Shown: positions 17,756-41,640, numbered from the stretch's first letter. The stretch: DNA of 64,000 bases from Candidatus Nomurabacteria bacterium (GCA_028286645.1 JAQBRF010000004.1:91501-155500), one strand, 5' to 3'. Notes: a model not told the origin generated them from the letters alone. A program made the numbers and translations.

Positions 17756-17853
17756 CGGCCTCCTTCCTGTTTAAACTTTACAAACAGACTAGCATATTGA
17801 AATAAAAGTTTCATTAATTTCGTATAAACTGTTATATGATATAATTGATAAAT

Positions 17854-19410: not shown

Positions 19411-19438
19411 CAAAATAAAAACCCCACCGAAGCGGGGC
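19411..19438 (-). terminator. intrinsic terminator for the 19482-20014 minus genes
   Basis: ccccacc-gaa-gcgggg hairpin; the A-run on plus gives a T-run on minus. Confidence 0.5.
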
Positions 19439-19481
19439 TCTCTGAATATGTTGGACACTACTTGATGGCGAAGGCAGAAGT

Positions 19482-20014: not shown

Positions 20015-20085
20015 TTGCGTATCTCCTAAAAGGATTCATAATTACACTACAATAAAGTTTCCTTAGCGTCAACTTATTCTGGAAC

Positions 20086-20094
20086 TGGTATACT
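20086..20094 (+). promoter_or_regulatory. extended -10 TGGTATACT (leaderless)
   Basis: The 14-mer aactggtatacttt is identical to 22317-22330. The ATG at 20101 is 6 nt after the -10 box. Confidence 0.5.
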
Positions 20095-20100
20095 TTGATG

Positions 20101-21009: not shown

Positions 21010-21012
21010 GTT

Positions 21013-22314
21013 ATGGAAAATATACCCCAATTTGGAACTAAAACAGAAAGTGCAGAATACATAGACCGTCCTGGTGTTTATGCAATTGTTACGAACCAAG
21101 AAGGAGATATTGCTGTTGTAGAAGTAAATGAGAGATATTTCCTCCTTGGAGGAGGATTGGATGCTGGAGAGACAGCAGAACAGGGCTTAAAAAGAGAAAT
21201 TATGGAAGAAACAGGTAAAGGTATCCAGTCAGCAACTTTTCTTGGAAAAGCGAATCAATATGTAGATGCGAAAGATGGGTATTTTAATAAGTTTGCAACC
21301 TTCTATAAAGTAGATTTAGGAGAAGATGTCAGCGCTAGTTCAGAATTAGACCACAAATTTAAATGGATAACAAAAGAGGAGTTTAAATCTAAAGGGGCAC
21401 AGGAGTTTCAGATATGGGCAGTAGAGAACTTAATAACAGAAAAAGAAAAGGCTACTATTCAAAAAAACTTTCCCGAATTAAATATAAACTCTATTCGCCT
21501 CGCAGGCGAAGGGATGAACAGCAAAGCTTTTATCGTAAATGATAATTTAATCTTTCGCTTCTCTAAAGTTGAGGAGGCTTCCGAGCAACTAAAGATGGAA
21601 ATAGAGATTTTACCTAAACTTAGAAATAGTATTACTCTTTCTATTCCAGACTTTGAATATATAGGAAAACAAGCGAATGGGCTTCCATTTGTTGGGTATA
21701 AAAAAATTCAGGGTGTGGGTTTAGATAAGGAGATTCTAGAAAATCTAAATTATGAGCTAAGAAGTAAATTATTAAACGAGATTTCAGATTTTATACAACA
21801 AGTACATGAATTTCCTCTTGAGATGGCAAAACTATCTGGAATAAAGGTGCGGGGATTTAGAGAAGATTACAGTAGTGATTTAAAAGACCTAAGAAAACAC
21901 GCTTTTCACTTATTGGATGAGAACACAAAGGAATACATAGAAAGAATCTACGGAGAGTATCTTTCCAATGGAAGTAATTTTACATATACTCCTGTTTTCC
22001 TCCATGCAGATTTTAGTCCTGAACATATCATCTATGATGAACAAAAACAAACTATTTCTGGAGTAATAGACTTTGGAGATATTGAAATTGGTGACCCAGA
22101 TTATGACTTGATGTATTTATACGAAAGATGGGGTGAGGCTTTAATTAAGGAGTTGCTTAAATACTATCCTCATAAAGATGAAGCTCATCTACTTAGAAAG
22201 TTAGAATTCTTCAGCCGCGCCAATACGACACAAGATGTTTTGATTGGAATCTTTAGAAAAGATAATGGAATATTGGACTGGGCATTAGAAAAATTAAAGA
22301 AAGAAGTAGTTTAG
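21013..22314 (+). CDS. Nudix hydrolase fused to an aminoglycoside/choline-kinase-like phosphotransferase (APH) domain
   Basis: Nudix box GGGLDAGETAEQGLKREIMEETG in the N-terminal domain. The C-terminal domain carries LHADFSPEHIIYD (HxD..N-type catalytic loop) and IDFGD (DFG) motifs. Confidence 0.7.
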   Translation: MENIPQFGTKTESAEYIDRPGVYAIVTNQEGDIAVVEVNERYFLLGGGLDAGETAEQGLKREIMEETGKGIQSATFLGKANQYVDAKDGYFNKFATFYKVDLGEDVSASSELDHKFKWITKEEFKSKGAQEFQIWAVENLITEKEKATIQKNFPELNINSIRLAGEGMNSKAFIVNDNLIFRFSKVEEASEQLKMEIEILPKLRNSITLSIPDFEYIGKQANGLPFVGYKKIQGVGLDKEILENLNYELRSKLLNEISDFIQQVHEFPLEMAKLSGIKVRGFREDYSSDLKDLRKHAFHLLDENTKEYIERIYGEYLSNGSNFTYTPVFLHADFSPEHIIYDEQKQTISGVIDFGDIEIGDPDYDLMYLYERWGEALIKELLKYYPHKDEAHLLRKLEFFSRANTTQDVLIGIFRKDNGILDWALEKLKKEVV

Positions 22315-22320
22315 TTAAAC

Positions 22321-22329
22321 TGGTATACT
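22321..22329 (+). promoter_or_regulatory. extended -10 TGGTATACT (leaderless)
   Basis: The ATG at 22336 is 6 nt after the -10 box; same 14-mer as at 20076. Confidence 0.5.
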
Positions 22330-22335
22330 TTTTAT

Positions 22336-22791
22336 ATGAACGAGGAACAGTATATGCAACTAGCCATAGACGAAGCCACAAAAGCTGCCTGGCCTTTTGG
22401 AGCTGTGATAGTTAAAGATGGTGAGATTATTGCTCAAGCAGGGTCAGGGGATGGACAAGATGAGACTCATGACCCCACCGCTCATGCAGAGGTTAATGCA
22501 ATTAGAAGAGCCTCTCTAAAACTTAAAGGAGATTTAAAGGGCGCCACTCTATACGCTTCATGTGAACCTTGCGCCCTATGCTTTGGGGCTTCCTGGTATG
22601 CAGGAATAAGGAATATAGTGTATGGTTCTTCAATTAAAGATTTGCAAGAAATAGATTATCTAAAAGACGGAGACTTAGTATTCCCCCATGAACATGTTTC
22701 AGAGTCTGATGTAGAGGTAAAGACTGGAGTTCTTAGGGATAAGGTGATGGATATGTATAAAAGTCATTCTAAAGCTAAACAGTGGTTATGA
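22336..22791 (+). CDS. cytidine/deoxycytidylate-family zinc deaminase (TadA/guanine deaminase-like)
   Basis: HAEVNAIRRA and CEPCALC zinc-binding motifs of the CDA fold; 151 aa. Confidence 0.8.
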   Translation: MNEEQYMQLAIDEATKAAWPFGAVIVKDGEIIAQAGSGDGQDETHDPTAHAEVNAIRRASLKLKGDLKGATLYASCEPCALCFGASWYAGIRNIVYGSSIKDLQEIDYLKDGDLVFPHEHVSESDVEVKTGVLRDKVMDMYKSHSKAKQWL

Positions 22792-23327
22792 AGAATGCCA
22801 TAATCCTTCACGGAACAGGAACATTAAATACAGAGTTTTGGTTTCCATACATTAAAGAAAAACTAGAAGAGAAAGGATATGAAGTTTGGCTTCCTCAACT
22901 TCCAAACGAAGATATTCCTAACTTAGAAGAGTGGCTTCCTTTTGTATTAAATGATGGAAAATTTAATGAAGAAACTATTTTAATTGGGCATTCTGCTGGC
23001 TCTCAACTTATATTAAGTATCCTTGAAAAGCTGAATATAAAAATCCATAAGGCTATCCTTGTTTCTGGGTATGCACAGTCTTTAAGAGAAAGCGCATCTT
23101 CGGAGAATAAACCAGAGCTTAATTGGAATAAAATCAAGGAGCACGCAGAAGAGTTTATATTTATCAATTCAGATAATGACCCTTGGGGATGCGATGACAC
23201 TCAAGGTAAGATAATGCAAGAAAAGCTCGGAGGTGAGTTAATCCTACCCAAAGGAGAAGGACATATGGGCTCCACTACCTACAACCAGCCTTATAAGGAA
23301 TTTCCTTTACTAGCAGAGCTGTTATAA
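22782..23327 (+). CDS. alpha/beta hydrolase, YdeN/RBBP9-like serine hydrolase
   Basis: About 180 aa with a GHSAG nucleophile elbow (LIGHSAGSQ). Confidence 0.55.
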   Translation: MVMKNAIILHGTGTLNTEFWFPYIKEKLEEKGYEVWLPQLPNEDIPNLEEWLPFVLNDGKFNEETILIGHSAGSQLILSILEKLNIKIHKAILVSGYAQSLRESASSENKPELNWNKIKEHAEEFIFINSDNDPWGCDDTQGKIMQEKLGGELILPKGEGHMGSTTYNQPYKEFPLLAELL

Positions 23328-23334
23328 TCTAGTA

Positions 23335-23910
23335 ATGAACCATCAAGAACAAATGAATACCCCACAAAACATATTAGAAACAAACATAAGGCGTATTATT
23401 GAGAATTTTCAAACAGGAGAGAAGTATGAAATGCAGGGTGGCAAAGATATGGTATTTACAGATGAGGATATAAAAAAGATTGCCGAGATTTGTTCCCAAG
23501 AAAATAAATACAATCTCCTCTTTAAGGATATGCTTCAGGGGAAACCTTACACAGAAGAAGATGCTAGAAAGTTTGTTAACTGGGTAAAAGAAGGATGGGA
23601 TAAGCAATCTCACTATGTTTTCTTTCTACGAAAACCAGACGGAGATATAGTCGGCTGTATAGATATAAAGGGCAAAGAAGGAGAAGTAGGATATTGGGCA
23701 GATGAGAACTATTCTGGTTTTATGACTAATGCAGCAAAAGAACTTTCTTCTATAGCTAGAGAGGGAGGGTTTGAAAAATTGTTTGCTTGGGTAAGAGCCA
23801 TAAATGATAAATCTATTGGTGTGTTGGAGAGAGCAGGATACGAAAAAGTTCTTGAAGAAGAAAAAGAAGGTAAGGGGTTAAGTTTTCAGTACGAGAAACA
23901 GCTTAAATGA
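23335..23910 (+). CDS. GNAT family N-acetyltransferase
   Basis: The C-terminal half shows the GNAT fold pattern (VGCIDIK...GYWADENYSGFMTNAAKEL). Confidence 0.55.
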   Translation: MNHQEQMNTPQNILETNIRRIIENFQTGEKYEMQGGKDMVFTDEDIKKIAEICSQENKYNLLFKDMLQGKPYTEEDARKFVNWVKEGWDKQSHYVFFLRKPDGDIVGCIDIKGKEGEVGYWADENYSGFMTNAAKELSSIAREGGFEKLFAWVRAINDKSIGVLERAGYEKVLEEEKEGKGLSFQYEKQLK

Positions 23911-24554
23911 AAAGAATTAAGGAAGAATTTTTAGATAAGTTAGAGAAAGTAGTAAAGCTGAAGAATAAGAGGGTTCTGGAAATTGGCTGTGGAGTGGGAA
24001 CTAGGTCAATACAAATAGCTAAAAGAAGCAAACACCTAACGGCGATTGAGCCAAGCACAAAACTAATCCAAGAGGCTAAAAAGACTAATAGCTTAGAGAA
24101 TATAGATTATCAGGTTGGAAAAGCAGAGAAATTAAAATTTAGTAAAGGAATGTTTGATGCAGTCATTTTTACTTTATCACTTCATCATGTACCTCCTGTA
24201 AAAATTAATAATGCGATAAAAGAAGCAAATAGAGTGGTTAAGAAAGGCGGTTATATTGTGTTTCTTGAACCAACTCATGATGGAAACTTCTTTGAGTCTG
24301 AAGTAAAGTTTGATGCGTGCGACGGGGACGAAAGGAAAGATAAGGCTTTTGCGTACTACTCAATCTTAAGTTATAAGGGCTATAAAGAAGTAGCCGAAAT
24401 TCCTGATGAAACAGTATTTCAATTTGATTCTTATGAAGATTTTATAAAATCTATGAATCCAAAGAAGAATAAAAAAGAGATTAAAAACTTCCTAGAAGCT
24501 AATAACTATATTCTTACAGCCTCTAGGAGAATCAATATATTCAAAGTGGTATAA
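23907..24554 (+). CDS. class I SAM-dependent methyltransferase
   Basis: Motif I VLEIGCGVGTRS; overlaps the previous gene by 4 nt. Confidence 0.7.
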   Translation: MKRIKEEFLDKLEKVVKLKNKRVLEIGCGVGTRSIQIAKRSKHLTAIEPSTKLIQEAKKTNSLENIDYQVGKAEKLKFSKGMFDAVIFTLSLHHVPPVKINNAIKEANRVVKKGGYIVFLEPTHDGNFFESEVKFDACDGDERKDKAFAYYSILSYKGYKEVAEIPDETVFQFDSYEDFIKSMNPKKNKKEIKNFLEANNYILTASRRINIFKVV

Positions 24555-24561
24555 TCTGGAA

Positions 24562-25296
24562 ATGAAAGGTAAAATTGCTTTAATAACAGGCGTGGGAAGA
24601 AGAAATGGCATTGGTGCCGCTTTATGTGTAGAGGTTGCAAAAGCGGGAGTTAATATTTTCTTTACTTATTTATCTAGATATGACCACGAAAAGTATCCAG
24701 AGATACAGAAGATGGATGTTAATACCTTTACTGATGAATTAGAGCAATTAGGAGTAAAGGTTAAGAGTCTTGAACTTGATTTGTCCAAACCAGATTCAGT
24801 AAAGATTTTATTTGATAAAGTAAAAACTGAATTAGGTGCACCAGATATTCTAATAAATAATGCAGCAGTTTCCGCCAGTGTCCCATTTCTAGGTGTTACA
24901 GCAGAATTGTTAGATGAGCATTACGCGGTAAATGTTAGAACTACTACATTGCTCTGTAAAGAATTTGTCTTACAAGGTAAGGAAGGTAAAATTATAAACC
25001 TTACTTCTGGACAAGCTTTGGGGGTTATGAAAGATGAAATTCCATACACAATAACCAAAGCAAGTATTGAAATGCTTACCCAACAACTTGCTCTTGAATT
25101 TAAGGAACATCATATTACTATTAATGCGTTTGACCCAGGGCCAACTGACACAGGGTGGATGGATGACGAAGTTAAAGAAATGGTCAAAAAACATTCAAGT
25201 ACTGGAAGGATTAACTCTCCTGAAGACGCAGCTAAGCAGATTGCGGCACTTTTGTCTCAAGATATTACAGGACAAATAATTAATGCAGAAAGATAG
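24562..25296 (+). CDS. short-chain dehydrogenase/reductase (SDR)
   Basis: ALITGVGRRNGIGAA Rossmann motif, NNAA, and YTITKASIE (YxxxK catalytic). Confidence 0.8.
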   Translation: MKGKIALITGVGRRNGIGAALCVEVAKAGVNIFFTYLSRYDHEKYPEIQKMDVNTFTDELEQLGVKVKSLELDLSKPDSVKILFDKVKTELGAPDILINNAAVSASVPFLGVTAELLDEHYAVNVRTTTLLCKEFVLQGKEGKIINLTSGQALGVMKDEIPYTITKASIEMLTQQLALEFKEHHITINAFDPGPTDTGWMDDEVKEMVKKHSSTGRINSPEDAAKQIAALLSQDITGQIINAER

Positions 25297-25302
25297 ATAC
25301 CT

Positions 25303-25839
25303 ATGGAAGAAATTAAATACAAAGGAAATATAATTGAAGTAGTTCAGAAGGAGGTTGAACAGAAAGGTAAGAAGAAGACCTTTGAATATGCTAGACGCTC
25401 ACCAGGAACAAGATTGATTATTCCAAAAGGAAATACTGTCTTGCTTACTAAGGAATTTCGTCATGAGATAAAGGGGTATGATTATAGACTTCCAGGTGGT
25501 AAGGTTTACGATACTTTAGAGGAATATAACAATGCGCTGGCGTCGGGGATAGACATAGTACAAAAAGCTAAAGAAGGCGCTATAAAAGAAGCCAAAGAAG
25601 AAGCGGGAATAGATGTTAAGAACTTATCTTTATTTCATAAGTCTGTGTGCGGAGCGACAATAATATGGGATTTATTTTATTTTGAAATAAATGAATTTAA
25701 TGAGACCTCACAAAAATTGGAAGAGGGCGAAGATATTACATCTGAGTTTGTTGATAAAGAAAAAGTTAAGCATATGTGTCTAGATGGTTCTATAAGCGAG
25801 GAAAGAAGCGCACTAGTGCTACTTCGCTATTTAAATTAG
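25303..25839 (+). CDS. Nudix hydrolase
   Basis: Nudix box LPGGKV...AIKEAKEEAGI. Confidence 0.7.
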   Translation: MEEIKYKGNIIEVVQKEVEQKGKKKTFEYARRSPGTRLIIPKGNTVLLTKEFRHEIKGYDYRLPGGKVYDTLEEYNNALASGIDIVQKAKEGAIKEAKEEAGIDVKNLSLFHKSVCGATIIWDLFYFEINEFNETSQKLEEGEDITSEFVDKEKVKHMCLDGSISEERSALVLLRYLN

Positions 25840-25840
25840 T

Positions 25841-26374
25841 ATGTCAGTCCAAATAATCTTTGAAGCACACGGAACCACATTTGATAACGAAGCTCATCTG
25901 TCTTCAGGTTGGAATGATGTTGAACTATCACCACTAGGAATAGAGCAGTCTAAAGAAATGGGAGAAAGGTACAAAGATGAACATTTTGATGCAATCTTTT
26001 GTTCAGATTTGCAAAGAGCCTGGAGAAGTGCCGAAATAGCCTTTGGGGATAAATTTAAGATTGTAAAAGATAATAGATTAAGAGAATGTAACTATGGAGA
26101 CCTTACACAAAGTCCCTCTGAAATAGTAGACAAAGAAAAACCCCACAGAATAAGCAGTCCTTTTCCTAATGGAGAAAGTTATAAGCAGACTACTGAAAGA
26201 ATGAAAAGTTTTTTGGAAGATTTAAAGAAAGATTACGATGGTAAGAAGGTGCTTATAATCGGCCATAGAGCCACACAATACGGTTTAGACCACTTAATTG
26301 ATGGTGTTCCACTAGACCAACTAGTTTCTGCAAAATTTAAGTGGCAACCAGGGTGGGAATATAATTTAAGTTAA
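25841..26374 (+). CDS. histidine phosphatase superfamily (phosphoglycerate-mutase-like) protein
   Basis: IIFEAHGTT in place of the RHG motif, and a distal IIGHRATQ His motif. Confidence 0.6.
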   Translation: MSVQIIFEAHGTTFDNEAHLSSGWNDVELSPLGIEQSKEMGERYKDEHFDAIFCSDLQRAWRSAEIAFGDKFKIVKDNRLRECNYGDLTQSPSEIVDKEKPHRISSPFPNGESYKQTTERMKSFLEDLKKDYDGKKVLIIGHRATQYGLDHLIDGVPLDQLVSAKFKWQPGWEYNLS

Positions 26375-26375
26375 T

Positions 26376-26798
26376 ATGGAGGACTCTTCTGATATAAAAT
26401 CTGCAGCTATTATTCTTATTAAGGGTGACAAGGCTTTGCTTCAATTAAGAGACAATAAACCAACCACTCCATATTCCCACCATTGGGGTTTTGCAGGTGG
26501 AGGACACCTAAACGAAGGTGAGACATTTCTAGAGGCAGCTCAAAGAGAGCTGAAAGAAGAAACTGGGTATACCTCAAAGAGTCCAATACATTTTATGACA
26601 GCTGAATATACTCTGCCTGACGGAAGAACAGTTAAATCTGAAAGATATTATGAAATCTACGACGAAGTTCAGGAAGTAAAATGTTTGGAAGGGGAGAAAA
26701 TAGAATTCCTATCTTTAGAAGAAATTGCAAAAGAACAAATGTATCCAGGAGTAGCTGAAGCAGTAGAAAAAGCATTAAAAGTAGCCTTAAATAATTAG
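26376..26798 (+). CDS. Nudix hydrolase
   Basis: Nudix box GGGHLNEGETFLEAAQRELKEETGY. Confidence 0.75.
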   Translation: MEDSSDIKSAAIILIKGDKALLQLRDNKPTTPYSHHWGFAGGGHLNEGETFLEAAQRELKEETGYTSKSPIHFMTAEYTLPDGRTVKSERYYEIYDEVQEVKCLEGEKIEFLSLEEIAKEQMYPGVAEAVEKALKVALNN

Positions 26799-26833
26799 TT
26801 TTCATTCATTATGATTATCTGCTTTATTAGCTA

Positions 26834-26862
26834 TTGACATTATGCATATTTTAGTGTATAAT
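26834..26862 (+). promoter_or_regulatory. perfect sigma70 consensus promoter TTGACA-17-TATAAT with a TGn extension
   Basis: ttgacattatgcatattttagtgtataat. About 97 nt of GC-rich leader follows before the ATG at 26966. Confidence 0.6.
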
Positions 26863-26965
26863 AAGATAGCTGACCTGACACAGCTTTGCTAAGGCGAGTG
26901 CCGAAGCGAGATTTGAAACTTTAAGCCCCGTCAGAGGCTGAACCTTGAAATCAAGGAGCGACAAA

Positions 26966-27604
26966 ATGTTTGACTTCTTTTCGGAACTGTCCGTAACGAC
27001 CTGGATGTGGATTCTTGCTGTTCTCGTTGCCTTCTTGCTGCGTCGCAAGATTTTCCGTCTCATCAAATGGCTTTCTGCACCTCTGAAGAAGCGGTGCGAG
27101 GCAGTGGAGGCAAATGTCGCCCAGAAGGTTAGTGAGAGTGTCTTCGGTAAGCTTAAAGAAAACATTTTCACTTTCCACTTGCCGCAGGTTCTCTCTGATA
27201 CGCTTGTAAAGCGCATCTTGGAGAAACTGCCCGAAGCGATGGAAGCGCGTGCTCTCAAAACCATTTCTAATCTGACTGCGCAGGTCAATGGCTTGCGTAA
27301 ACAGATAAACGAAGATGGCTGGGTCACGCTCGGTGTTCACGTTCGTGGGTTCAAGTTGGACAGCGAGGACAAAGACCAGTATTTCGCACTGATTCAGTTC
27401 AACACCCGTTACGGTGGTTTACGGGCAGTGCAAGATGCAGGTCGTCGTAAACTGGTTCGCAAGCAAGACCTTGTGCGAGACAGGTCACCGTTCAAGGGTT
27501 GCCCAAGTTACGCCACGCACCTCGGTGCACCGTGGTACGGGAAAGTTGACGGCGACCCGAAAAGCATCGTGATGTTAGGCGAAGCCTACACTCTGGTGGA
27601 TTAA
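26966..27604 (+). CDS. membrane-anchored hypothetical protein (212 aa), GC-rich class
   Basis: AAGGAG 7 nt upstream of the ATG; N-terminal TM helix (TWMWILAVLVAFLL); a strong terminator follows. Confidence 0.5.
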   Translation: MFDFFSELSVTTWMWILAVLVAFLLRRKIFRLIKWLSAPLKKRCEAVEANVAQKVSESVFGKLKENIFTFHLPQVLSDTLVKRILEKLPEAMEARALKTISNLTAQVNGLRKQINEDGWVTLGVHVRGFKLDSEDKDQYFALIQFNTRYGGLRAVQDAGRRKLVRKQDLVRDRSPFKGCPSYATHLGAPWYGKVDGDPKSIVMLGEAYTLVD

Positions 27605-27639
27605 AGCAACAACCACACAGACTGAAGCTTCTGTTCCAA

Positions 27640-27677
27640 ACCCCCAGCCGCTCTCGGTTGGGGTTTTTCTTTTTTTA
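27640..27677 (+). terminator. strong intrinsic terminator
   Basis: ccccagccg-ctct-cggttgggg followed by tttttctttttttaaa. Confidence 0.7.
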
Positions 27678-27720
27678 AAGTGGTCAATGATTGATAAAGG
27701 GAGTGAGTTATAATGACTAT

Positions 27721-28431
27721 ATGGATACCGAACGCCTCCAAACTATATCTATTGGCAACAAGAAGCGACTAAACTCGTTTATTGAAATAATTAAAGAAAC
27801 TTCCGAACTTACGGGTTTCAATAGACTTACGCGAATAGTCAAAATTCCAATCTCCACTCTTAACCAAAATAATCTATCTCAAGTAGAAGCAGAGCAATTA
27901 TGCACTCTTATAAATGGAATCACGAGGGAAACGATTATAGACCTACCAGTAAGGAAGGCGGATAAGCACATAGGCGGTGCTGACGACTTTATTCCCGACA
28001 GTTCAATAAAAAGACTAGCCTCTCTTCAGAAAATCAAATTTGATAAAATCATTATGGCAGAACAACAACTGTCGCTTTTAGGTATTACAGACTATGATAG
28101 GGATACATTTCTAATACTTCAATTTATAAGTGCTGACGGTCTTCAGCAAGTATTTAGTATGCAGAAGTATATTGATTCTCAAAACGAATCAGATACCCAG
28201 CTAGATGACGCCACAAAAAAGAAATTGGGTATTTTAAAAAAGCTTAAAGTAGAGTGGGAGTTAATGCCCAAGGGTTTTAAAAATAAACAGATAAAGATTT
28301 CTGATGATAAGTGGCAGGATTGGATAAGAGAATCTGGTGTTGACGAGTATTATCAGTTAGAGAATATCCTTTTTAGCCTCCAAGAGGAAGGTCTAATCAT
28401 AGAATATGATTTTATAGATAATTATAGATAA
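27721..28431 (+). CDS. hypothetical protein (236 aa)
   Basis: ATG 7 nt after TATAAT at 27708. AT-rich, no motif recognised. Lies upstream of the recombinase module. Confidence 0.45.
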   Translation: MDTERLQTISIGNKKRLNSFIEIIKETSELTGFNRLTRIVKIPISTLNQNNLSQVEAEQLCTLINGITRETIIDLPVRKADKHIGGADDFIPDSSIKRLASLQKIKFDKIIMAEQQLSLLGITDYDRDTFLILQFISADGLQQVFSMQKYIDSQNESDTQLDDATKKKLGILKKLKVEWELMPKGFKNKQIKISDDKWQDWIRESGVDEYYQLENILFSLQEEGLIIEYDFIDNYR

Positions 28432-28434
28432 ACT

Positions 28435-28881
28435 ATGAGTGAATTATACATACAATTACCCGATGATTTTGGAGAGAGATATGAGAAGTATCTTAACAAA
28501 GCACTAAATGCGAAAGAGAAGCCGATGGTGGTTCCTCCACAGGAGAGTATTGGGAAGGATATTCCAGTTATTACCTATGACCCTGCAACAGGTGATGGGC
28601 AAGTTTTAGGTGGTAGAAAATTTAAATTTAAATATGACGGTAAAGAATTCAAATTATTTCGTGAGTTATACAAAAATATAAACACTGTTATTAAAAGATA
28701 TGATGTGGTAATTGCAATAGAAATCTATGAGGATGGAGATAAGCCAATAGAAGCACAACGCTCTTTAGATACTGAAAAAATTAACAGAGCAGTTACAAAG
28801 ATACGAGAAAAGACTGGTCTTACGCCTGAACAGTTAAGCAATAATGATGGCAATTTAATACTGCGGGCTAAACAGGGGTAA
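28435..28881 (+). CDS. hypothetical protein (148 aa)
   Basis: ORF 4 nt after the previous gene. Confidence 0.45.
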   Translation: MSELYIQLPDDFGERYEKYLNKALNAKEKPMVVPPQESIGKDIPVITYDPATGDGQVLGGRKFKFKYDGKEFKLFRELYKNINTVIKRYDVVIAIEIYEDGDKPIEAQRSLDTEKINRAVTKIREKTGLTPEQLSNNDGNLILRAKQG

Positions 28882-28995
28882 ATAAGGTTTTTTAGGACTA
28901 AAAAAGGTTACACAGGTTTAATTGAAATGGCTACTATCAAAGTAGCCTGTTTCTTTGGTTGTAAATAATTCACAGAACGCACGAGTAAGCCAATT

Positions 28996-29038
28996 GCTTG
29001 CTTGAACTGTTTCAGCGTTCGGAATGGTTCAAGCAAAG
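28996..29038. repeat. 10-bp inverted repeat ttgcttgaac / gttcaagcaa overlapping the start codon of the HTH gene
   Basis: Arms at 28998-29007 and 29027-29036, with 19 bp between them. Confidence 0.5.
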
Positions 29039-29458
29039 AGCGGGCTTTCAGATGTGGCTAACAAATACAACCTTCATTCAATCAAAACACGCAGAAGCTA
29101 CTCCTTAAAAGAAGTGTCTGTATTGTTGCAAGTTGATAGAAAAACCTGCTCAAGATGGATAAAAGATAAGGGCTTAAAAGTTATTGCTCCTGATACTACT
29201 CCTATTCTTATTATGGGAGCAGACCTAAAGACATTTCTCCTAGAGATGCGCTGTAAGAACAGGGTAGTACTAGGTGAAGATGAGCTTTATTGCCTCAAAT
29301 GTCACTGTGGGAGAAAAGCCAAGAAGGGGAGCGAACAAGTAATTAAGACGGGAAAGAAGATTGGAAAAGAAAAGCAGGAACAGTTCAAAAAAATAGGTAA
29401 CTGTGATACCTGCGGTACTCCAATGCATAAATTCTTAGGGCTCCAGCAGAAGGATTAA
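29024..29458 (+). CDS. HTH DNA-binding protein (excisionase/MerR-like) with a C-terminal zinc ribbon
   Basis: YSLKEVSVLLQVDRKTCSRWIKDKGLKV helix-turn-helix, then CLKCHCG...CDTCG cysteine pairs. Confidence 0.55.
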   Translation: MVQAKSGLSDVANKYNLHSIKTRRSYSLKEVSVLLQVDRKTCSRWIKDKGLKVIAPDTTPILIMGADLKTFLLEMRCKNRVVLGEDELYCLKCHCGRKAKKGSEQVIKTGKKIGKEKQEQFKKIGNCDTCGTPMHKFLGLQQKD

Positions 29459-29499
29459 TAGGTTACTTACCATGACCTGTAAATGTCCCACTCAATACT

Positions 29500-30627
29500 A
29501 TGACAAACAAAGCATATAAAAACGAGACGATAAAGAGAAAATTCTACAGCTATTTAGCTAATTCTTCAAAAGGATTTTCTCCTACTACCATTGATTGTTA
29601 CGATGGTGCTATTTGTCTATGGGAAGATTTTTCTAAGGGAGAGGATTTCTTGTATTTTAGTAAAACAAAAGCAGAAGAATTCAAAGAATGGCTAAGAAAC
29701 AAGAAGAAGGTGCGTTCTTCAGAAAATGTAAGTCTGTCCTATTGTTACGACATGTTGAGATATTTGAGATGTTTCTTCAACTGGTTGTCTCAACAAAAGG
29801 GATACAGAAAAATAACTCAAAGTGATGTTGATTATCTCAATCTATCAAAAAAAGAAAGAAGAGTAGCAATGCAGCCAAAAAGTAAAGTTGTTCCTTCCTT
29901 AGAACAAGTAAAAAAGGTGATTGAAAATATTAAGGGGGAAAATGAAGTGGAGATGCGTGATAGGGCACTTCTGTCTCTTGCCCTGCTGACAGGAGCGCGA
30001 ATTACTGCTTTAACTTCGTTACCTCTAAGGAGTTTTGATAGGGAAAGACAGGTAATTGACCAGAGTCCAGAGCTGAATGTTAAAACTAAATTCTCAAAAA
30101 GAATTGTCTCACCGCTCATTTCCTTTTCATATAAGGAGCCATTAGGATACTTTGTTGAGTGGGTAAATTATTTAACTAGAAAGGGTTTTACAGATGAAGA
30201 CCCGATATTCCCAGCTACCAAAGTACAAAATGGTACAAAAGATGAGCTGGGTTATTTTAATACTGGTGAAGTAGAGCCTACCTTTTGGCAAAGTACATCT
30301 ACTGCAAGAAAGATATTTGAACAGAGGTTTACCCAAGCAGGTATTAGCTATCACAACCCTCACTCTTTTAGACATCTACTAGTTAAAGAAATATCAAAGC
30401 TCCATCTAACCGAGGAGCAGAGAAAAGCCTTCAGTCAAAGTTTAGGGCATGAGGATGTAGGTACAACATTTGGTTCGTACGGATATGGATATATTGATGA
30501 AGATAGACAAATAGAAATTGTTAATAGTATAGATTTTGAAGGGAAACATCATAGAAAAGAATATGTATTTACCGAGGAAGGGATAAATGAACTTATTAGG
30601 AAAGCCAAAGAGGGTGACGAAGTATGA
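29500..30627 (+). CDS. tyrosine-type site-specific recombinase / phage integrase family
   Basis: LALLTGARITAL (box I Arg), HNPHSFRHLLV (HxxR), LGHEDVGTTFGSYGY (catalytic Tyr region). Confidence 0.85.
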   Translation: MTNKAYKNETIKRKFYSYLANSSKGFSPTTIDCYDGAICLWEDFSKGEDFLYFSKTKAEEFKEWLRNKKKVRSSENVSLSYCYDMLRYLRCFFNWLSQQKGYRKITQSDVDYLNLSKKERRVAMQPKSKVVPSLEQVKKVIENIKGENEVEMRDRALLSLALLTGARITALTSLPLRSFDRERQVIDQSPELNVKTKFSKRIVSPLISFSYKEPLGYFVEWVNYLTRKGFTDEDPIFPATKVQNGTKDELGYFNTGEVEPTFWQSTSTARKIFEQRFTQAGISYHNPHSFRHLLVKEISKLHLTEEQRKAFSQSLGHEDVGTTFGSYGYGYIDEDRQIEIVNSIDFEGKHHRKEYVFTEEGINELIRKAKEGDEV

Positions 30628-30786
30628 AACATCCGCTTCCAGGAAAGAAAAAGAAGCTAGTGATTCCTCAAATAATATATCAGGAATGTAACTGCGATGC
30701 GTCTGATTCACAGTTAAGGATAGATAAGGCATTTGATATTCTTTTTGAAGAGCTAATTAGGTCTAAAGAACTAGTGAATAACTAAC

Positions 30787-31005
30787 TTGACATCTATGGA
30801 CAATTTAGAACATACTGTAAATATGGAATTTTATACAAGAAGCGAAGTGGCGACATATCTTAGAGTTCATGAAAGAACTATTATGAGGTGGCTTAAAAGC
30901 GGAGCTCTGAAAGGTTACAAATTAGGAGAAGGAAAAACTGCCGTATGGAGAATTAGGAAGTCTGAAGTAGAGAATTTTCTAAAAAAGCACATAAGTAAAA
31001 AATAA
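30787..31005 (+). CDS. excisionase-family HTH DNA-binding protein
   Basis: 72 aa; YTRSEVATYLRVHERTIMRWLKSGALKGYKLG ... WRIRKSEVENFL matches the Xis/AlpA-type HTH pattern. Confidence 0.65.
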   Translation: MTSMDNLEHTVNMEFYTRSEVATYLRVHERTIMRWLKSGALKGYKLGEGKTAVWRIRKSEVENFLKKHISKK

Positions 31006-31008
31006 TTT

Positions 31009-32640
31009 ATGCCAGAACAATTACAAAATCAAACAAAACTAATTGCTGTTTATGGAAGGGTCTCTAGTTCAAATCAAGAAAACGAGGGAACTATTGAAAC
31101 ACAGCTCTCTGCAGTTAATGAGTTTTCTAAGAAGAATGGCTATACAATTGTGCAGAAATATACTGATGAAGGATGGAGTGGAGATAGTATCGCGAGACCT
31201 GCGTTAGACCAATTGCGAATGGATGCAAAGAAAAAGATTTGGTCTGCAGTTCTAATGTATGACCCAGATAGGTTGGCACGGCGCTATTCCTATCAAGAGT
31301 TGATTATGGATGAATTGAAGGAAGCTGGAATTGAAGTCATATTTGTAACAGTTTCCGCCCCGAAGAATAGTGAAGATAAAATTCTCTACGGAGTACGAGG
31401 TTTATTTGCTGAATACGAAAGGGCAAAGATTGCAGAACGCTTCCGACTAGGAAAAGTTCGTAAAGCAAACGAAGGCCATATTATTGCTAGTGAGGCACCT
31501 TATGGGTATACATTCATTACAAGAAATTCTGAAAGACAAGGTTACTACGAAATAAACGAAATTGAAGCAATTATCGTTAGGAAAATATTTACCTGGGTAG
31601 CTGACGAGGGTTTAACTTTACGAGCCATAGTTAAGCGTCTTCAGAATGAGGGAATACTACCTCGTAAAAGCAAAAGAGGTGTATGGAACACAAGTACATT
31701 AAGCACCCTATTACGAAATAAGACATACATAGGGGAAGCCCACTATGGTGCATCTTATGCTGTGGTTCCATTAAAACCGATTAAGAAGGAAGGCTATAAG
31801 AAAATAAAGAAAACGAGTAGACGAAATAAGCCTGAAAGTGAGTGGATTAAAATTTCTACTCCAAAAATTATTGAGGAAGAACTATTTATACGAGTAGGGC
31901 AAAGATTAAAGTCTAATTTTGAAAAGGCAGTAAGAAATACTAAAAATGAATATCTTCTCGCTGGTTCTATTTGGTGCTCGTGTGGAAATAGGCGGGCAGG
32001 GGAAGGGCCTCAACATGGTAAACACTTATATTACAGATGTACTAATCGCGGATATTGCTATCCTTTACCACGCACTTGTTTTGAAGGAGGAGTAAACGCA
32101 AGAATTGCTGATAAATTAGTTTGGCAAAAAGTCAGTATGCTTATGAGTTCTCCTGAACTTCTAACAAGACAAGCAGAACGATGGCTTAATAATAAGGTGA
32201 GCAGCAAACCTGCGGCCGCTACTGATATTTCAATATTAAGAAAAGAGATTGAAAAACTTAAAGACTCACAAGAACGATACATGAAAGCATATGGTGCGAA
32301 TGTCATCTCTTTAGAGCAGTTAACAGAATACACAGCACCTTTAAAAGAAAAAATGACTTCTCTGGATAGTCAAATAAAGCAAACTGAACTCGCAAATAAT
32401 CAGTTAAATGAAATACCACTACCCAAGAAAGAGGAAATAGAAGAGTTTGCACACAAGGCAAGCCATGAACTCAAAAATTTGAGCTTTAAGGCGAAACAGG
32501 AGATAATAAGAAGCATTATTGAAAAGGTCGTAGGTAATCAACAAGAACTAATAATATCAGGGTTTATACCCGTACAATATCTCAACCATGTCTCATTCTG
32601 CTCTCTCCATCGGAATCGTCGGATTGCCAAATGTAGGTAA
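31009..32640 (+). CDS. large serine recombinase (resolvase domain + recombinase domain + zinc ribbon + coiled coil)
   Basis: N-terminal LIAVYGRVSSSNQ catalytic Ser motif, a recombinase domain, a Cys-rich CSCGNRR...YYRCTNRGYCY ribbon, and a C-terminal coiled coil. The last 53 nt overlap the ychF start. Confidence 0.85.
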   Translation: MPEQLQNQTKLIAVYGRVSSSNQENEGTIETQLSAVNEFSKKNGYTIVQKYTDEGWSGDSIARPALDQLRMDAKKKIWSAVLMYDPDRLARRYSYQELIMDELKEAGIEVIFVTVSAPKNSEDKILYGVRGLFAEYERAKIAERFRLGKVRKANEGHIIASEAPYGYTFITRNSERQGYYEINEIEAIIVRKIFTWVADEGLTLRAIVKRLQNEGILPRKSKRGVWNTSTLSTLLRNKTYIGEAHYGASYAVVPLKPIKKEGYKKIKKTSRRNKPESEWIKISTPKIIEEELFIRVGQRLKSNFEKAVRNTKNEYLLAGSIWCSCGNRRAGEGPQHGKHLYYRCTNRGYCYPLPRTCFEGGVNARIADKLVWQKVSMLMSSPELLTRQAERWLNNKVSSKPAAATDISILRKEIEKLKDSQERYMKAYGANVISLEQLTEYTAPLKEKMTSLDSQIKQTELANNQLNEIPLPKKEEIEEFAHKASHELKNLSFKAKQEIIRSIIEKVVGNQQELIISGFIPVQYLNHVSFCSLHRNRRIAKCR

Positions 32641-33694
32641 ATCCACGCTCTTCAACGCCATTACGAAAAAATCCGTTCCTGCGGATAATTATCCTTTTTG
32701 TACTATCGACCCATCAGTTGGTATCGTTCCAGTGCCGGACGAGAGATTAGATGTGCTTGCAAAGCTATCTCTATCTAAAAAAATAATTCCTGGCGTAATT
32801 GAATTTGTGGATATAGCGGGCCTCGTTAAAGGTGCCGCCGAGGGCCAGGGACTTGGAAATCAATTTCTTTCACACATTCGCGAGACAGATGCCATCGCCG
32901 AAGTCGTGCGCATATACGAAAATAGCGATCTCATTCACGTCGAAGGAACGGTAGACCCTCTGCGAGATATTGAGATTATAAATATGGAGTTAATTCTCGC
33001 CGATATGTCTACTGTAGAAAAAAGAATTCAAACAATTGGGCGCGATGTAAAAAGGGGAGACAAAGACGCTTTGAAGCTGGAAGCAATACTTCAGAAGCTA
33101 AAAATTGCGTTTGATGCAGGTCAGTTAGCTAACAGTGTTCATATGGACGAAGAGGAGAAGGGGTTATTGAAAGAGCTTCATTTGATTACTATGAAGCCGA
33201 TTTTATATGTCTTAAATAAACAGTCCGGTGGTAAAAGTTTAGATGAGATGAATGATGAAAGATTTAAAAAGCTAATCTCATTCTTTAATGACAATAACCA
33301 AAAGTATGTAATAGTGGACGCGAAGATAGAAGACGAGCTCAAAGAGTTTGAAGGTGTCGAGAAGGAAGAAATGAGAAGAGAGCTCGGAGCTCATGATAAT
33401 GGAGTGGACGGTCTCATCAAAGCCGGATATGAATTACTCGGTCTTGAAACATTTTTGACTACAGGCCCGGAGGAGACAAGAGCATGGACAATTAAGAAAG
33501 GAAGTACAGCGCCAGTTGCTGGACAAGCCATTCACACAGACTTTAAAGATAAATTCATCCGCGCTGAAGTTGTAGCATACGAAGACTTAGTAAAAGTGGG
33601 AACGTTTGCTGAAGCGAAAAATAAAGGGGTACTAAGAACCGAGGGGAAAGAATACATCGTAAAGGATGGAGATGTGATTGAGTTTAAGATCTAA
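32588..33694 (+). CDS. ychF: ribosome-binding ATPase YchF (Obg-family GTPase)
   Basis: MSHSALSIGIVGLPNVGKSTLFNAIT P-loop, NQFLSHIRETDAI, and a C-terminal TGS domain. Confidence 0.9.
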   Translation: MSHSALSIGIVGLPNVGKSTLFNAITKKSVPADNYPFCTIDPSVGIVPVPDERLDVLAKLSLSKKIIPGVIEFVDIAGLVKGAAEGQGLGNQFLSHIRETDAIAEVVRIYENSDLIHVEGTVDPLRDIEIINMELILADMSTVEKRIQTIGRDVKRGDKDALKLEAILQKLKIAFDAGQLANSVHMDEEEKGLLKELHLITMKPILYVLNKQSGGKSLDEMNDERFKKLISFFNDNNQKYVIVDAKIEDELKEFEGVEKEEMRRELGAHDNGVDGLIKAGYELLGLETFLTTGPEETRAWTIKKGSTAPVAGQAIHTDFKDKFIRAEVVAYEDLVKVGTFAEAKNKGVLRTEGKEYIVKDGDVIEFKI

Positions 33695-33700
33695 ACAGAC

Positions 33701-34399
33701 CTATCTTACCTCTAGAAATACTTTAGGTTTGGTGGTGATAATGCGATCCTTTATTTCTGGAAAGATTTTACCTAATTGGATATTCTCAAAAAATATTGTT
33801 AATTCTCCATCATATGGATAGGCATTGGCATCATACAGAACATTTTTTATTTTTACTCTTTTTAACATTTCGGGCATTTCCTCAATGACATAGTGTGCCA
33901 TTCGGTTGATTTGTTGGTCATCGAAAGTTCGATTTTCATTCTTTGTGAATCCTTTGATTATTCCCTTTAATGTATCTTTAAACAATGGATTACTTTCGTA
34001 GTAATTATACAGAAACTTTACATCTTCTTTGTATCGGTCATCCATTAAATCCTTCCACGAGGCATAAATAATCTTTTCTTTTTCTTCTAAGCTAAAGCTT
34101 TTATCAATCTCATTTTTTACTTTTTCTATAATCACATTTCCCATTTTGTTAGAAAGTTCTAAGGCTTTAGCATGGGTAATGCCATTTCTAACCTCTAAGT
34201 TTATGGCATGAATATAATCAGCCACATATACCACAACGACGTCTTTGGTATGTTCTAAAGACCAACGGGTAAGTGCAACTATGTTTTCTACAGTAAACCA
34301 TTTATTTCCCAAACTTACTCCTATTCCTATTGTGTACTGCTTCTGTTGAAGTTCTTCCAAGTTGCCTCCTCTAATTTTACGAAGTTCCATGATACACAA
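33701..34399 (-). CDS. tRNA-dependent cyclodipeptide synthase (CDPS)
   Basis: IGIGVSLGNKWFTVENIVALTRWSLEHTKDVVVVYVADYIHAINL aligns with the AlbC-type motif IGISAGNSYFSQKNTVMLLQWA...VVYVDTHIDEML, including the catalytic Ser. Downstream, HYVIEEMPEM matches the CDPS Y[VI]xxExP motif with the catalytic Tyr and Glu. Size is about 230 aa. Confidence 0.75.
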   Translation of the reverse strand: MCIMELRKIRGGNLEELQQKQYTIGIGVSLGNKWFTVENIVALTRWSLEHTKDVVVVYVADYIHAINLEVRNGITHAKALELSNKMGNVIIEKVKNEIDKSFSLEEKEKIIYASWKDLMDDRYKEDVKFLYNYYESNPLFKDTLKGIIKGFTKNENRTFDDQQINRMAHYVIEEMPEMLKRVKIKNVLYDANAYPYDGELTIFFENIQLGKIFPEIKDRIITTKPKVFLEVR

Positions 34400-34444: not shown

Positions 34445-35188
34445 ATGAATCAGGAGTATTCTGCCGATTATAAGTTAAGTCTATATATAAACAGGATAAG
34501 AGCCTTTTTACTAAATCAGGGATTTTTCGAGCATCATTTATACTCTACAACTAATTACAAAATTGAAAACACAGATACTTTTCCTTTAAAGGATGGCATA
34601 TCTTTACGTTATAATCCTGAACCAGATATTTGGCAGATAGGTATTAAGTACGATAAATTTTTCTGGATTGGCAGTATGTTTAGAAATGAAAAAGAGATTA
34701 ATGAAACCAGAAGATATGAATTTACGGTAGTGGACATTTACCAACCAAATGGGAGACAAGAAGATGTTGTAAGTAAATTTATAGAAATATTGAAAATGTT
34801 GGAAGAAAGGTTAAAATTACCAGTTTTATCTTCATGTGAAGTTAAAACAATGCTTCATGAGGAATTCAATAAGGAGGACAGAATATTACCTTCAGGTAGG
34901 TGCTGGCTTCTAGTTACTAATTATCCAATTGTAGAATCATTTTATGACACAGGAAAAGATTCTGATTATACTTCTAAATTCGAAATTTACTTTGTTGATG
35001 AAGGCGTGCCTTTAGAAATAGCCGCTTGTGGAAATTTAGGGGAAAATATAAATAAAGTTAATTATATTTCGAGTGAAGATAGTTACATTAATCAAGAAAT
35101 AATAAATAAAAAGTTTATCGGTTTTGGTTTTGGGTTAGAAAGATTAATTTTTTTGTATGATCGGGAAGCTATCGACCATACAGAATGA
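34445..35188 (+). CDS. truncated class IIb aminoacyl-tRNA-synthetase-like catalytic core (LysRS/AsxRS paralog; EpmA- or AsnA-archaeal-type-like), no anticodon-binding domain
   Basis: Motif 2 MFRNEKEINETRRYEFTVVDIY (FRNE...EFT) and motif 3 GFGFGLERLIFLY (GxGxGxERL) are present; only 247 aa. Transcribed divergently from the CDPS. Confidence 0.7.
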   Translation: MNQEYSADYKLSLYINRIRAFLLNQGFFEHHLYSTTNYKIENTDTFPLKDGISLRYNPEPDIWQIGIKYDKFFWIGSMFRNEKEINETRRYEFTVVDIYQPNGRQEDVVSKFIEILKMLEERLKLPVLSSCEVKTMLHEEFNKEDRILPSGRCWLLVTNYPIVESFYDTGKDSDYTSKFEIYFVDEGVPLEIAACGNLGENINKVNYISSEDSYINQEIINKKFIGFGFGLERLIFLYDREAIDHTE

Positions 35189-40932: not shown

Positions 40933-41514
40933 ATGGACCAAAATCGTGAAATCTGGCTTGCTCGCCACTTTCCTGCGGAAAACACAGGCGAGGTCGGCTG
41001 GCAGCAAAACGCCAAGCTTCGCCCGGAAGCAGAGAACATGGCCGAACGCGTGAAGGTGGCATATCTGCAATCGGTGTCGTTTGCTGCATTCGGCTGCTCC
41101 ATGATGGACCGGGCTCACGCGAGTCTCGGGCTCCTGTTTTTGGAGATAGGGAATGGCAACAAGGTGCCGGTGACTTGTCAGAGCCTCGGCCCGCTTAATC
41201 CCGACGAGTGGGGGTTTTTCGGACAACTGAAGACCGGAACCATCGAGGAAATACACGAGCATGCACCAGAAGGTCTGCTCGACCGCGAAGGTGTACGCGT
41301 TCTGGAGAGAGGCGTTATCATGTTCGCCGACGCCTGGCTTCAGCCCGGAGAGAAAGCTTTCCTCGTTTCCCATACGCCCTTTATAGAAGGTGCACTCGCC
41401 GCTCTCAAGGGTTACTGGGATCTCGAGTTCACGATGGGAAAAGGCGACATCCTCGTCTTCACCATTGGCGAACGCGGCGTCGAAAGCACTCGGCATCTGA
41501 TAGTTCCGAAGTAG
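40933..41514 (+). CDS. SixA-like histidine phosphatase family protein, GC-rich class
   Basis: IWLARHFPAE (RHG-like RHF) and FLVSHTPFIEGALAAL (VSHxP) resemble phosphohistidine phosphatase SixA. GC-rich with an SD. Confidence 0.45.
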   Translation: MDQNREIWLARHFPAENTGEVGWQQNAKLRPEAENMAERVKVAYLQSVSFAAFGCSMMDRAHASLGLLFLEIGNGNKVPVTCQSLGPLNPDEWGFFGQLKTGTIEEIHEHAPEGLLDREGVRVLERGVIMFADAWLQPGEKAFLVSHTPFIEGALAALKGYWDLEFTMGKGDILVFTIGERGVESTRHLIVPK

Positions 41515-41558
41515 CGTTCGTGCTCCTGTGGTATTTTAGCCGGCGGCTCTATGCGCCG

Positions 41559-41617
41559 GCTCTTTCTTTTTATATTATAGTTTGACTTACTAAAAATAAG
41601 ATGTAGTGTTTGGGTAA
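41559..41617. repeat. 59-bp direct repeat, copy 2
   Basis: gctctttctttttatattatagtttgacttactaaaaataagatgtagtgtttgggtaa. Preceded by a terminator hairpin (gccggcg...gcgccggc) whose sequence differs from the hairpin before copy 1 but whose structure is analogous. Confidence 0.8.
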
Positions 41618-41640
41618 ACTCATTCACCTGCGGGGCAGCT

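Follow-up and report, generated by a model that had tools for sequence, protein, structure and literature searches.

The staphylococcal cassette chromosome (SCC) integrates at the 3′ end of rlmH, and the integrases of SSV1-type Sulfolobus viruses carry the attachment site attP inside the int gene itself; the SSV1 integrase is a tyrosine recombinase whose gene is split into two large parts, and the integrated and free states encode different proteins. In the Patescibacteria, or candidate phyla radiation (CPR), genomic islands have to date been reported from compositional prediction only, for example in a study that mentions no integrase (PMC12455944), and a large survey of large serine recombinases (LSRs) and their attachment (att) sites used isolate genomes (PMC10083194). 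The literature that we searched contained no paper joining Patescibacteria and 'serine recombinase' with 'integrative' or 'tyrosine recombinase'. Here we analyze a 64,000-nt stretch, referred to as the window, of a Candidatus Nomurabacteria (Patescibacteria/CPR) chromosome (GCA_028286645.1 JAQBRF010000004.1:91501-155500). Positions 19335–32613 very probably constitute one integrative island of 13,279 bp that its LSR placed within the opening codons of ychF, a housekeeping gene, by recombining attP with the chromosomal site attB. At the level of sequence comparison we demonstrate its boundaries, att sites of the LSR type with a GG crossover, a ychF start supplied by the element, a displaced native ychF promoter, an exchange of the LSR C-terminal tail and a recurrent module that pairs a tyrosine recombinase (Yint) with the LSR.

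The recombinase module, five genes and intact, forms the right end of the 13,279-bp island. A preliminary description of the window had listed a helix-turn-helix (HTH)/zinc-ribbon protein (HTH/Zn), a tyrosine integrase, an excisionase (Xis)-like HTH protein and a 543-aa LSR in one orientation, and all these open reading frames (ORFs) are indeed present on the + strand, in a tightly packed, operon-like arrangement with gaps of 1 and 3 nt downstream of a small 53-aa ORF that the description had not listed. The LSR is 100% identical to a protein of a Candidatus Nomurabacteria metagenome-assembled genome on a 514-kb contig; exact-sequence look-ups returned no entry for the YchF and LSR of the window. 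The features that define the junctions and the module are:

19288–19334, + strand: attL B arm, native ychF promoter and first codons; crossover GG at 19333–19334
19335–19418, + strand: attL P′ arm, the detached LSR 3′ end; 27 codons (HGVNTTQHAGIGRVVPFQFKIALSKTK) and stop, in the LSR frame across the junction
29054–29458, + strand: HTH/Zn gene; weak HTH_17 match and CxxC...CxxC (two CxxC pairs); readable from ATG 29024
29500–30627, + strand: Yint, tyrosine recombinase, 375 aa; Phage_integrase, 4.9e-10
30624–30785, + strand: conserved 53-aa ORF; start overlaps the Yint stop by 4 nt
30787–31005, + strand: excisionase-family HTH protein, 72 aa; HTH_17, 9e-14; TIGR01764 excisionase, 7.8e-12
31009–32640, + strand: LSR, integrated form, 543 aa; Resolvase (PF00239), 1.9e-30; Recombinase (PF07508), 3.6e-20; Zn_ribbon_recom, 0.002
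32560–32660, + strand: attR; P arm, LSR 3′ end; crossover GG at 32612–32613; B′ arm, ychF G1-motif region
32588–33694, + strand: ychF, the target gene, intact; TIGR00092 YchF equivalog, 425 bits against a cut-off of 279

The att sites were located by comparison with the empty sites of relatives; a repeat search over 19–33.2 kb did not reveal them, because attL and attR share only about 5–7 nt. For this comparison, 80 species-representative ychF loci were retrieved. In relatives that keep both upstream genes, the ancestral order is a DsbA-like gene (17845–18525 in the window), a 75-aa gene (18528–18755) and ychF. In one relative (L010), about 25 nt separate the stop codon of the 75-aa gene from the ychF promoter, and in the window 13.8 kb lie between this gene and ychF; in other relatives the gap ranges from 25 bp to 3.6 kb. 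An LSR gene is found upstream of ychF only in L009, L059, L069 and L075, an LSR 3′ fragment stands at a contig edge in L062, and about 74 of the 80 loci have no LSR; the nearest relatives (80–82% YchF identity) have none. The comparison with related genomes, proposed earlier as a check, reveals a polymorphic site upstream of ychF, with an LSR in few of the 80 loci. Two loci without an LSR (L065:1822 and L078:7639) contain attL-like remnants, a native ychF start joined to P′-arm-like sequence, at distances of 4.8 and 2.4 kb upstream of the ychF gene; they resemble elements that have decayed at the ychF site, and the site as a whole looks like a hot spot with decayed copies. Separately, the interval from the 75-aa gene to the native promoter of ychF holds a 140-aa ORF with a CxxC motif (18799–19221, − strand); this ORF has no homologue in the compared loci and no family match, and may stem from an earlier insertion at this hot spot.

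In the empty sites, a TGnTAnAAT box is followed after about 10 nt by ATGTCNCTNTCNATCGG. The sole exact match in the window to this ychF start is at the left end of the island, where an extended −10 element, TGTTAGAAT (19300–19308), is followed by 9 nt (ctttttact) and by ATGTCACTTTCTATCGG (19318–19334), which encodes MSLSIG. The native ychF promoter, together with the first six codons of the gene, was left behind here, 13.3 kb upstream of ychF, and places the left end at 19334, far from the intervals 26800–27700 and 28880–29040 in which it had been sought. At the right end, attR carries ATGTCTCATTCTGCTCTCTCCATCGG at 32588–32613 and continues as genuine ychF; its crossover falls inside codons 8–9 of the present gene and within the interval of about 32560–32650 in which a junction had been expected. 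The overlap between the LSR ORF and ychF is exactly 53 nt (32588–32640), as described before. In native numbering the crossover corresponds to ychF codons 5–6, Ile-Gly (ATC-GG), and attB comprises ychF codons 1–12. The P arm of attR brings an element-borne ychF start, ATG 32588 followed by the rest of MSHSALSIG, and at filled sites the YchF N-terminus is altered and slightly longer (MSHSALSIG or MSSLSIG versus the native MSLSIG). A TACAAT box (32573–32578) lies 9 nt before the new ATG, at the same spacing as the native TAGAAT, an arrangement that is inconsistent among the other elements; ychF is probably now expressed from within the element.

Joining the left part of attR to the right part of attL yields a reconstructed attP, ...GCTCTCTCCATCGGCATGGAGTGAACACAACC, which closely matches the intact, non-integrated LSR 3′ end of L091, GCTCTCTCGATCGGTATGGAGCGAACACAACC; the L089 end is similar. 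The P′ arm, ATCGGCATGGAGTGAACACAACC, matches the intact attP of L091 (ATCGGTATGGAGCGAACACAACC) and that of L089. Around GG the reconstructed attP forms an imperfect palindrome (CTCCATC-GG-CATGGAG); its arms are symmetric at 12 of 20 positions, and those of the window attB at 5 of 20. Three further elements with both ends have the same architecture (L092, 11,114 bp; L103, 9,594 bp; L113, 12,858 bp), and over four elements arm symmetry amounts to 12, 7, 14 and 10 of 20 positions for attP and 5, 9, 4 and 3 of 20 for attB. In L092, attL (AAT-T-GG-T-AT) and attR (AAT-C-GG-C-AT) are identical only at GG; this confines the crossover to a dinucleotide of 2 bp, in line with a serine recombinase. Reconstruction from four elements yields the features characteristic of LSRs, namely short att sites, a dyad-symmetric attP and a 2-bp crossover. 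The two loci with intact attP and native LSR tail, L089 and L091, carry close relatives of the LSR on contigs of 195 and 85 kb and are not beside ychF; their neighbours include TrwB/VirD4-like, Replic_Relax, NYN and ArdC-like genes, which suggests that the carriers are conjugative or plasmid-like.

A consequence of this geometry is that the LSR gene spans attP, which lies in the last ~60 nt of the gene's own sequence. When integrated, the gene takes its final 9 codons and stop (32614–32640) from ychF, read out of frame, and the protein ends ...SLHR-NRRIAKCR. Read across the reconstructed attP, the same frame ends ...SLHR-HGVNTTQHAGIGRVVPFQFKIALSKTK and gives a protein of 562 aa (tail HGVNTT...VPFQFKI). 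The integrated and free states are thus predicted to encode different LSR C-termini, a difference that the reconstruction demonstrates at the level of reading frames. The native tail, 27–45 aa with the motif IPFxFxI, is replaced on integration. Native tails are homologous in at least 15 database homologues (consensus R.G.NT..H-(4-12)-IPFxFxIK.PPP), homologue P0101 shares HRHGVNTTQH with the window tail, and the remnants at attL in the window, L092, L103 and L113 carry the motif too. Most other LSR homologues end in out-of-frame ychF peptides (HRNRR..KCR) and can therefore be regarded as integrated copies. The IPFxF codons vary synonymously between elements (CCG/CCT/CCA, GAA/GAG, ATT/ATA) and lie 45–60 nt past the crossover, outside a normal half-site, which argues that the tail is conserved as protein; the detached tail ORF in the window contains no stop or frameshift. 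Divergent LSRs that accompany this Yint family have ORFs extending antisense into tRNA genes (L094:11780-11990 and L100:11760-11930), and for this reason an att site embedded in the LSR 3′ end seems to be general in this element family.

The LSR itself retains its catalytic residues. A resolvase catalytic domain with a nucleophilic serine is followed by a Recombinase domain and a zinc ribbon with an embedded coiled coil, the domain set of an LSR, in a family of more than 1,600 homologues. Y15, R17, V18 and S19 are invariant in 24 homologues, Ser19 being the catalytic serine; C323, C325, C344 and C357 are invariant among the aligned homologues, and long helices span residues ~364–489 in a low-confidence AlphaFold2 (AF2) model of P0101. 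Inactivating catalytic mutations, which had been named as a possible objection, were looked for in the alignment columns of both recombinases and none was found at the catalytic residues: Ser19 and the Yint catalytic set stand in invariant columns. In most elements that target ychF, the gene for the 72-aa HTH protein immediately precedes the LSR gene (57–70% identity; not detected in L069); it encodes a candidate recombination directionality factor (RDF) for the LSR.

Taken as a mechanism, the LSR would recombine attP with attB and the island would land in the first codons of ychF. The P arm mimics a ychF start, since it brings an ATG and nine codons of which the last letters are ATCGG, and it keeps ychF intact with a slightly longer N-terminus. 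Integration at the same time exchanges the conserved LSR tail for 9 residues of out-of-frame ychF. Excision, in which the 72-aa excisionase-like protein presumably acts as directionality factor, would rebuild the 562-aa form.

Yint belongs to a family of about 1,400 homologues at 47–65% identity. R167, K197, H288, R291, H317 and Y329 are invariant across 23 homologues of 54–64% identity, so the catalytic set is complete, and the AF2 model (pLDDT 83.8) has a simple two-domain Xer/Cre/IntI-like fold. The top Foldseek matches are XerA, IntI, Tn1549 Int, Cre and XerD (E 1e-7 to 1e-5). The R-K-H-R-H/W-Y set and the two-domain fold identify Yint as a tyrosine recombinase; membership of the Xer, IntI or MrpR families was weighed but not assigned, given that Yint has no sequence-level match in the Protein Data Bank (PDB) and matches Xer models only partially and far below their cut-offs. 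In a first sample of contexts (L092-L102), HTH/Zn and Yint were directly upstream of an LSR in every context examined; L092 and L093 target ychF, and L094-98 and L099-102 target tRNA genes, with LSR ORFs entering the tRNA gene. We then counted co-occurrence in loci retrieved by a metagenome scan with Yint as bait (80 loci). A hidden Markov model built from alignment A1 missed divergent LSR types, and tblastn with three LSR queries was used for the counts. HTH/Zn is directly upstream of Yint in 54 of 60 loci, and of 51 loci, 38 have an LSR that starts within 1.5 kb downstream of Yint and 46 have one within 6 kb. The Yint-partnered LSRs are of three types with a mutual identity of only ~25%. By these comparisons Yint and HTH/Zn are the constant part of the module, and the LSR is the exchangeable, target-defining part. 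Among the ychF elements without Yint, five of six carry a primase/helicase-type gene in the Yint position (AAA_25 in L001 and L075, Toprim in L007, D5_N/DUF5906 in L009 and L069).

The 13,279-bp segment qualifies as an integrative island in that it is bounded by attL and attR, is present in some relatives and absent from others, and has variable cargo. Phage structural, packaging and lysis genes were not found in the island, for which reason a prophage was rejected; PHROGs matches were limited to the integrase and the excisionase, the backbone and orphan proteins had no PHROGs match, and a scan of viral contigs with the LSR returned a single distant match (27% identity) and no viral-contig relative. 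By Pfam, no relaxase, coupling protein, type IV secretion system (T4SS) or origin of transfer (oriT) was found in 19.3–32.6 kb, so the identities integrative conjugative element (ICE) and integrative mobilizable element (IME) were rejected as well; the element in the window has no replication genes. An integron was likewise rejected: the repeat search revealed no attC-like repeats between the cargo genes, although IntI is a structural neighbour of Yint, and the cargo is co-oriented with Yint and lies upstream of it. ARAGORN found no tRNA gene in the whole 64-kb window. Rfam gave no match in the window, and scans of 26.8–29.1 kb and 40.7–42.3 kb in E-value mode gave nothing credible. The remaining features of the island are:

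19417–19442, − strand: terminator-like hairpin, just past the detached LSR tail
19482–20014, − strand: two small, overlapping ORFs (115 and 113 aa) at the element's left end, neither with a family match
20095–26798, + strand: cargo, ten co-oriented small-molecule/nucleotide-modifying enzyme genes (Pfam), between attL and attR
26834–27663, + strand: self-contained expression unit; perfect TTGACA-17-TATAAT promoter at 26834–26862, ~100-nt leader, 212-aa ORF at 26966–27604 and strong terminator at 27642–27663
27691–28881, + strand: two hypothetical genes, 246 and 148 aa, semi-conserved backbone genes of Yint-type elements
28987–29007 and 29027–29047, no strand assigned: arms of an imperfect inverted repeat, or hairpin, within the HTH/Zn-Yint operon leader; possible site for Yint or operator

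The enzyme block from 20.1 kb, suspected earlier to be cargo, lies as a whole between attL and attR, and it is absent from the interval between the 75-aa gene (18528) and ychF of relatives. Its order is a GNAT-pyrophosphatase fusion, a NUDIX-APH kinase fusion, a cytidine/dCMP-type deaminase, a serine hydrolase, a GNAT protein, an S-adenosylmethionine (SAM) methyltransferase, an SDR protein, a NUDIX protein, a histidine phosphatase and a second NUDIX protein. Sister elements carry type I or type III-like restriction-modification systems (L103, L113, L094 and L099), copper/metal ATPases (L093) or an S8 peptidase (L092). The 212-aa ORF has ~47% GC in surroundings of ~36%; its product has only 7 homologues among 5.8 billion sequences and no family match, and its leader has no Rfam match. 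Homologues of the 246- and 148-aa genes occur upstream of HTH/Zn in L093 (31% and 43%), L115, L143, L146 and L119, and homologues of the 53-aa ORF in L001 (33%), L092 (40%) and L111 (42%). The hairpins at 19417–19442 (−) and 27642–27663 (+) were considered as inversion sites and rejected; they are probably just similar terminators.

Of the 10-bp inverted repeat that had been described across the start codon of the HTH/Zn gene, the repeat itself is real (28998–29007 / 29027–29036) and forms the inner part of a longer imperfect repeat; its position relative to the gene had to be revised. HTH/Zn homologues begin MANKYN, equivalent to the position of GTG 29054, which is therefore probably the true start, and the repeat accordingly sits in the leader and not across the start codon. 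The longer repeat occurs once in the window, with 0.01 matches expected by chance; as RNA it folds with −31.6 kcal/mol (z = −2.07). It recurs upstream of HTH/Zn in L093 and L099-102, and 8 of 25 pairs are changed compensatorily between the window, L093 and L099. The spacer of 19 nt is atypical for a tyrosine-recombinase core site (6–8-bp overlap). With low confidence, Yint could carry out a simple-site, Xer/Cre-like reaction at this repeat, either resolving multimers or cointegrates or exchanging cargo. A different conserved leader is present ~100 nt upstream of HTH/Zn in L107, L119 and L130, where two interleaved repeats (A-B-A′-B′) have a pseudoknot-like topology; by eye, changes between these loci look compensatory.

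The presence of two unrelated recombinases had been read as a possible sign of nested or composite elements. On that reading, a tyrosine-integrase element (~26.8–30.6 kb) would have inserted in or beside a small LSR element, in keeping with the separate HTH_17-like accessory gene of each recombinase and with the six ychF-targeting LSR elements that lack this Yint; the consensus promoter and compositional break at 26.8–27.6 kb could then mark a seam. We consider this improbable. The order HTH/Zn-Yint-(small ORF)-(HTH)-LSR recurs in 46 of 51 loci and in three LSR clades, and a partnership with LSRs of three divergent types speaks against nesting by chance; the spacing of the genes is operon-like (4-nt overlap of the Yint stop with the 53-aa ORF, then the 1-nt and 3-nt gaps), no direct repeats or att-like duplications bound a sub-element, and Yint lies inside LSR-defined ends in L092, L103 and L113. 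The converse assignment, Yint as the true chromosomal integrase and the LSR serving resolution or inversion, has in its favor that tyrosine integrases commonly sit at element ends beside an Xis-like gene. It is nevertheless scarcely credible, and the reconstructed att sites already contradict it: the LSR gene contains the junction, the Yint-less elements L089 and L091 have intact LSR 3′ ends that match the reconstructed attP, and the identity at the crossover is a 2-bp GG instead of a 6–8-bp overlap. A role for Yint as a DNA-binding regulator that binds the leader repeat and has no recombinase function also seems unlikely to us. Such a role would resemble that of MrpR in the prophage SPbeta, which integrates by an LSR and whose master repressor has this fold and no recombinase activity (PMC10516654); MrpR (8a0a) is among the Foldseek matches of Yint at rank 40, and the operon leader does hold a conserved palindromic site. 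Against it, MrpR keeps only three of seven catalytic residues (PMC10516654), whereas six such residues of Yint are invariant across 23 homologues, and the best structural matches are the active recombinases XerA, IntI, Tn1549 Int and Cre.

The island might also be a fixed, immobile remnant whose recombinase genes are kept by chance or have been domesticated, for instance to drive ychF expression. Decayed copies do occur at the site (the attL-like remnants of L065 and L078, and variable gaps of 0.5–3.6 kb upstream of ychF), the ychF start codon now depends on element sequence, and a pneumococcal prophage remnant upstream of ychF has been reported to control ychF expression (PMC8637289). The parts needed for excision are nevertheless intact, comprising both att sites, the invariant LSR residues, the excisionase-like gene and the detached tail ORF, and presence among species is patchy, so that we give immobility only a small chance. 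Several observations weigh against the single, LSR-inserted island itself or against details of it. Cargo GC equals host GC and two cargo genes have homologues elsewhere near ychF in L014 and L051; some of the cargo block may derive from captured host DNA or from an earlier accretion and not be original cargo. The attL pattern was not found in the 8–10 kb of upstream sequence available for L001, L003, L007, L009, L059, L069 and L075. The Zn_ribbon_recom match (0.002) is under the Pfam cut-off, and among 59 distinct upstream regions only 3 contain the leader repeat. The AF2 model of P0101, a full-length LSR homologue with native tail, is poor (pLDDT 62.7), and its predicted strand at 551–559 gives no more than a hint of a beta-strand in the IPFEF tail.

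Given one LSR-inserted island with a recurrent Yint, we tentatively propose, as a possibility that the comparisons do not make likely, that these islands form a distinct dual-recombinase class. In it, a swappable LSR would pick the target (ychF or tRNA genes), the constant Yint and HTH/Zn would perform a second obligatory step (resolution, or cargo exchange at a structured site), and LSR isoforms with and without the IPFxFxI tail would couple the form of the enzyme to the integration state and add to directionality control. The questions raised are whether the tail exchange alters LSR activity or directionality, and why a catalytically complete Yint nearly always occupies the place just upstream of the LSR that a primase/helicase takes in sister elements. 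An exact LSR target (ychF, GG crossover) together with attP/attB pairs from four elements offers a mechanistic handle on gene transfer in CPR bacteria, and the natural LSR/att pairs could serve genome-engineering trials. At this locus a universally conserved housekeeping gene has been rewired to an element-supplied start codon and upstream region.

Outside the island, the genes downstream of ychF (33701–34399, −, and 34445–35188, +) form an unusual pair for CPR: a cyclodipeptide synthase (PF16715, 4.8e-12), directly next to ychF, is divergent from a 247-aa truncated class-II aminoacyl-tRNA-synthetase-like protein (tRNA-synt_2, 3e-6). At 41000–42000 a local GC peak (0.528) coincides with overlapping ORFs on both strands; this region contains no tRNA, and its best Rfam matches have E = 0.22.

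Several described systems share parts of this arrangement. The Bacillus prophage SPbeta, with its LSR SprA, its RDF SprB and MrpR, is likewise an LSR-integrated element that encodes a protein of the tyrosine-recombinase fold and uses an intragenic attB. However, most of the catalytic residues are gone from MrpR, and its gene does not adjoin sprA (PMC10516654), whereas the Yint set is complete and its gene lies directly upstream of the LSR, in an element without phage genes. The pneumococcal prophage remnant (PPH005 attB; PMC8637289) resembles the island as a mobile element immediately upstream of ychF, with an integrase gene beside ychF and a reported effect on ychF expression; its attB is intergenic (DUF951/ychF), and element type and phylum are different. 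Prochlorococcus tycheposons (bioRxiv 10.1101/2020.12.28.424599) are also small cargo-shuttling integrative elements of streamlined genomes that carry a site-specific recombinase (mostly tyrosine, in a minority LSR) and often a primase/helicase, as in the Yint-less sister elements, but they target tRNA genes with a single integrase each, and that study describes neither a Yint-LSR pair nor a ychF target.

The island resembles SCCmec as a non-phage, non-conjugative cargo island, with LSR insertion at one precise site in a conserved housekeeping gene and with variable cargo on a conserved recombinase backbone. The cassette chromosome recombinases CcrB and CcrC are the nearest named NCBIfam models to this LSR, which is nevertheless not a Ccr, scoring 129.8 bits (CcrB) and 111.3 bits (CcrC) against a cut-off of 900. 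Unlike in SCC, the target is the 5′ end of a gene, ychF, one LSR and Yint take the place of CcrA/CcrB, and the LSR ORF contains attP. Such a location of attP was not described in the literature that we examined on LSR att sites and ychF targets, in which the attP-in-gene question was searched only narrowly. The likeness to the SSV1 type is an att site within the recombinase's own coding sequence; in contrast to that type, only the last 27–45 codons of a serine recombinase are exchanged here, and the catalytic and DNA-binding domains stay intact. The dusA-specific integrase islands (PMC4482086) share the choice of the 5′ end of a conserved protein gene, a replacement 5′ end supplied by the element and a wide distribution over many species; tyrosine integrases act there, whereas the Candidatus Nomurabacteria island uses an LSR with a 2-bp crossover, at another target gene and in another host phylum.

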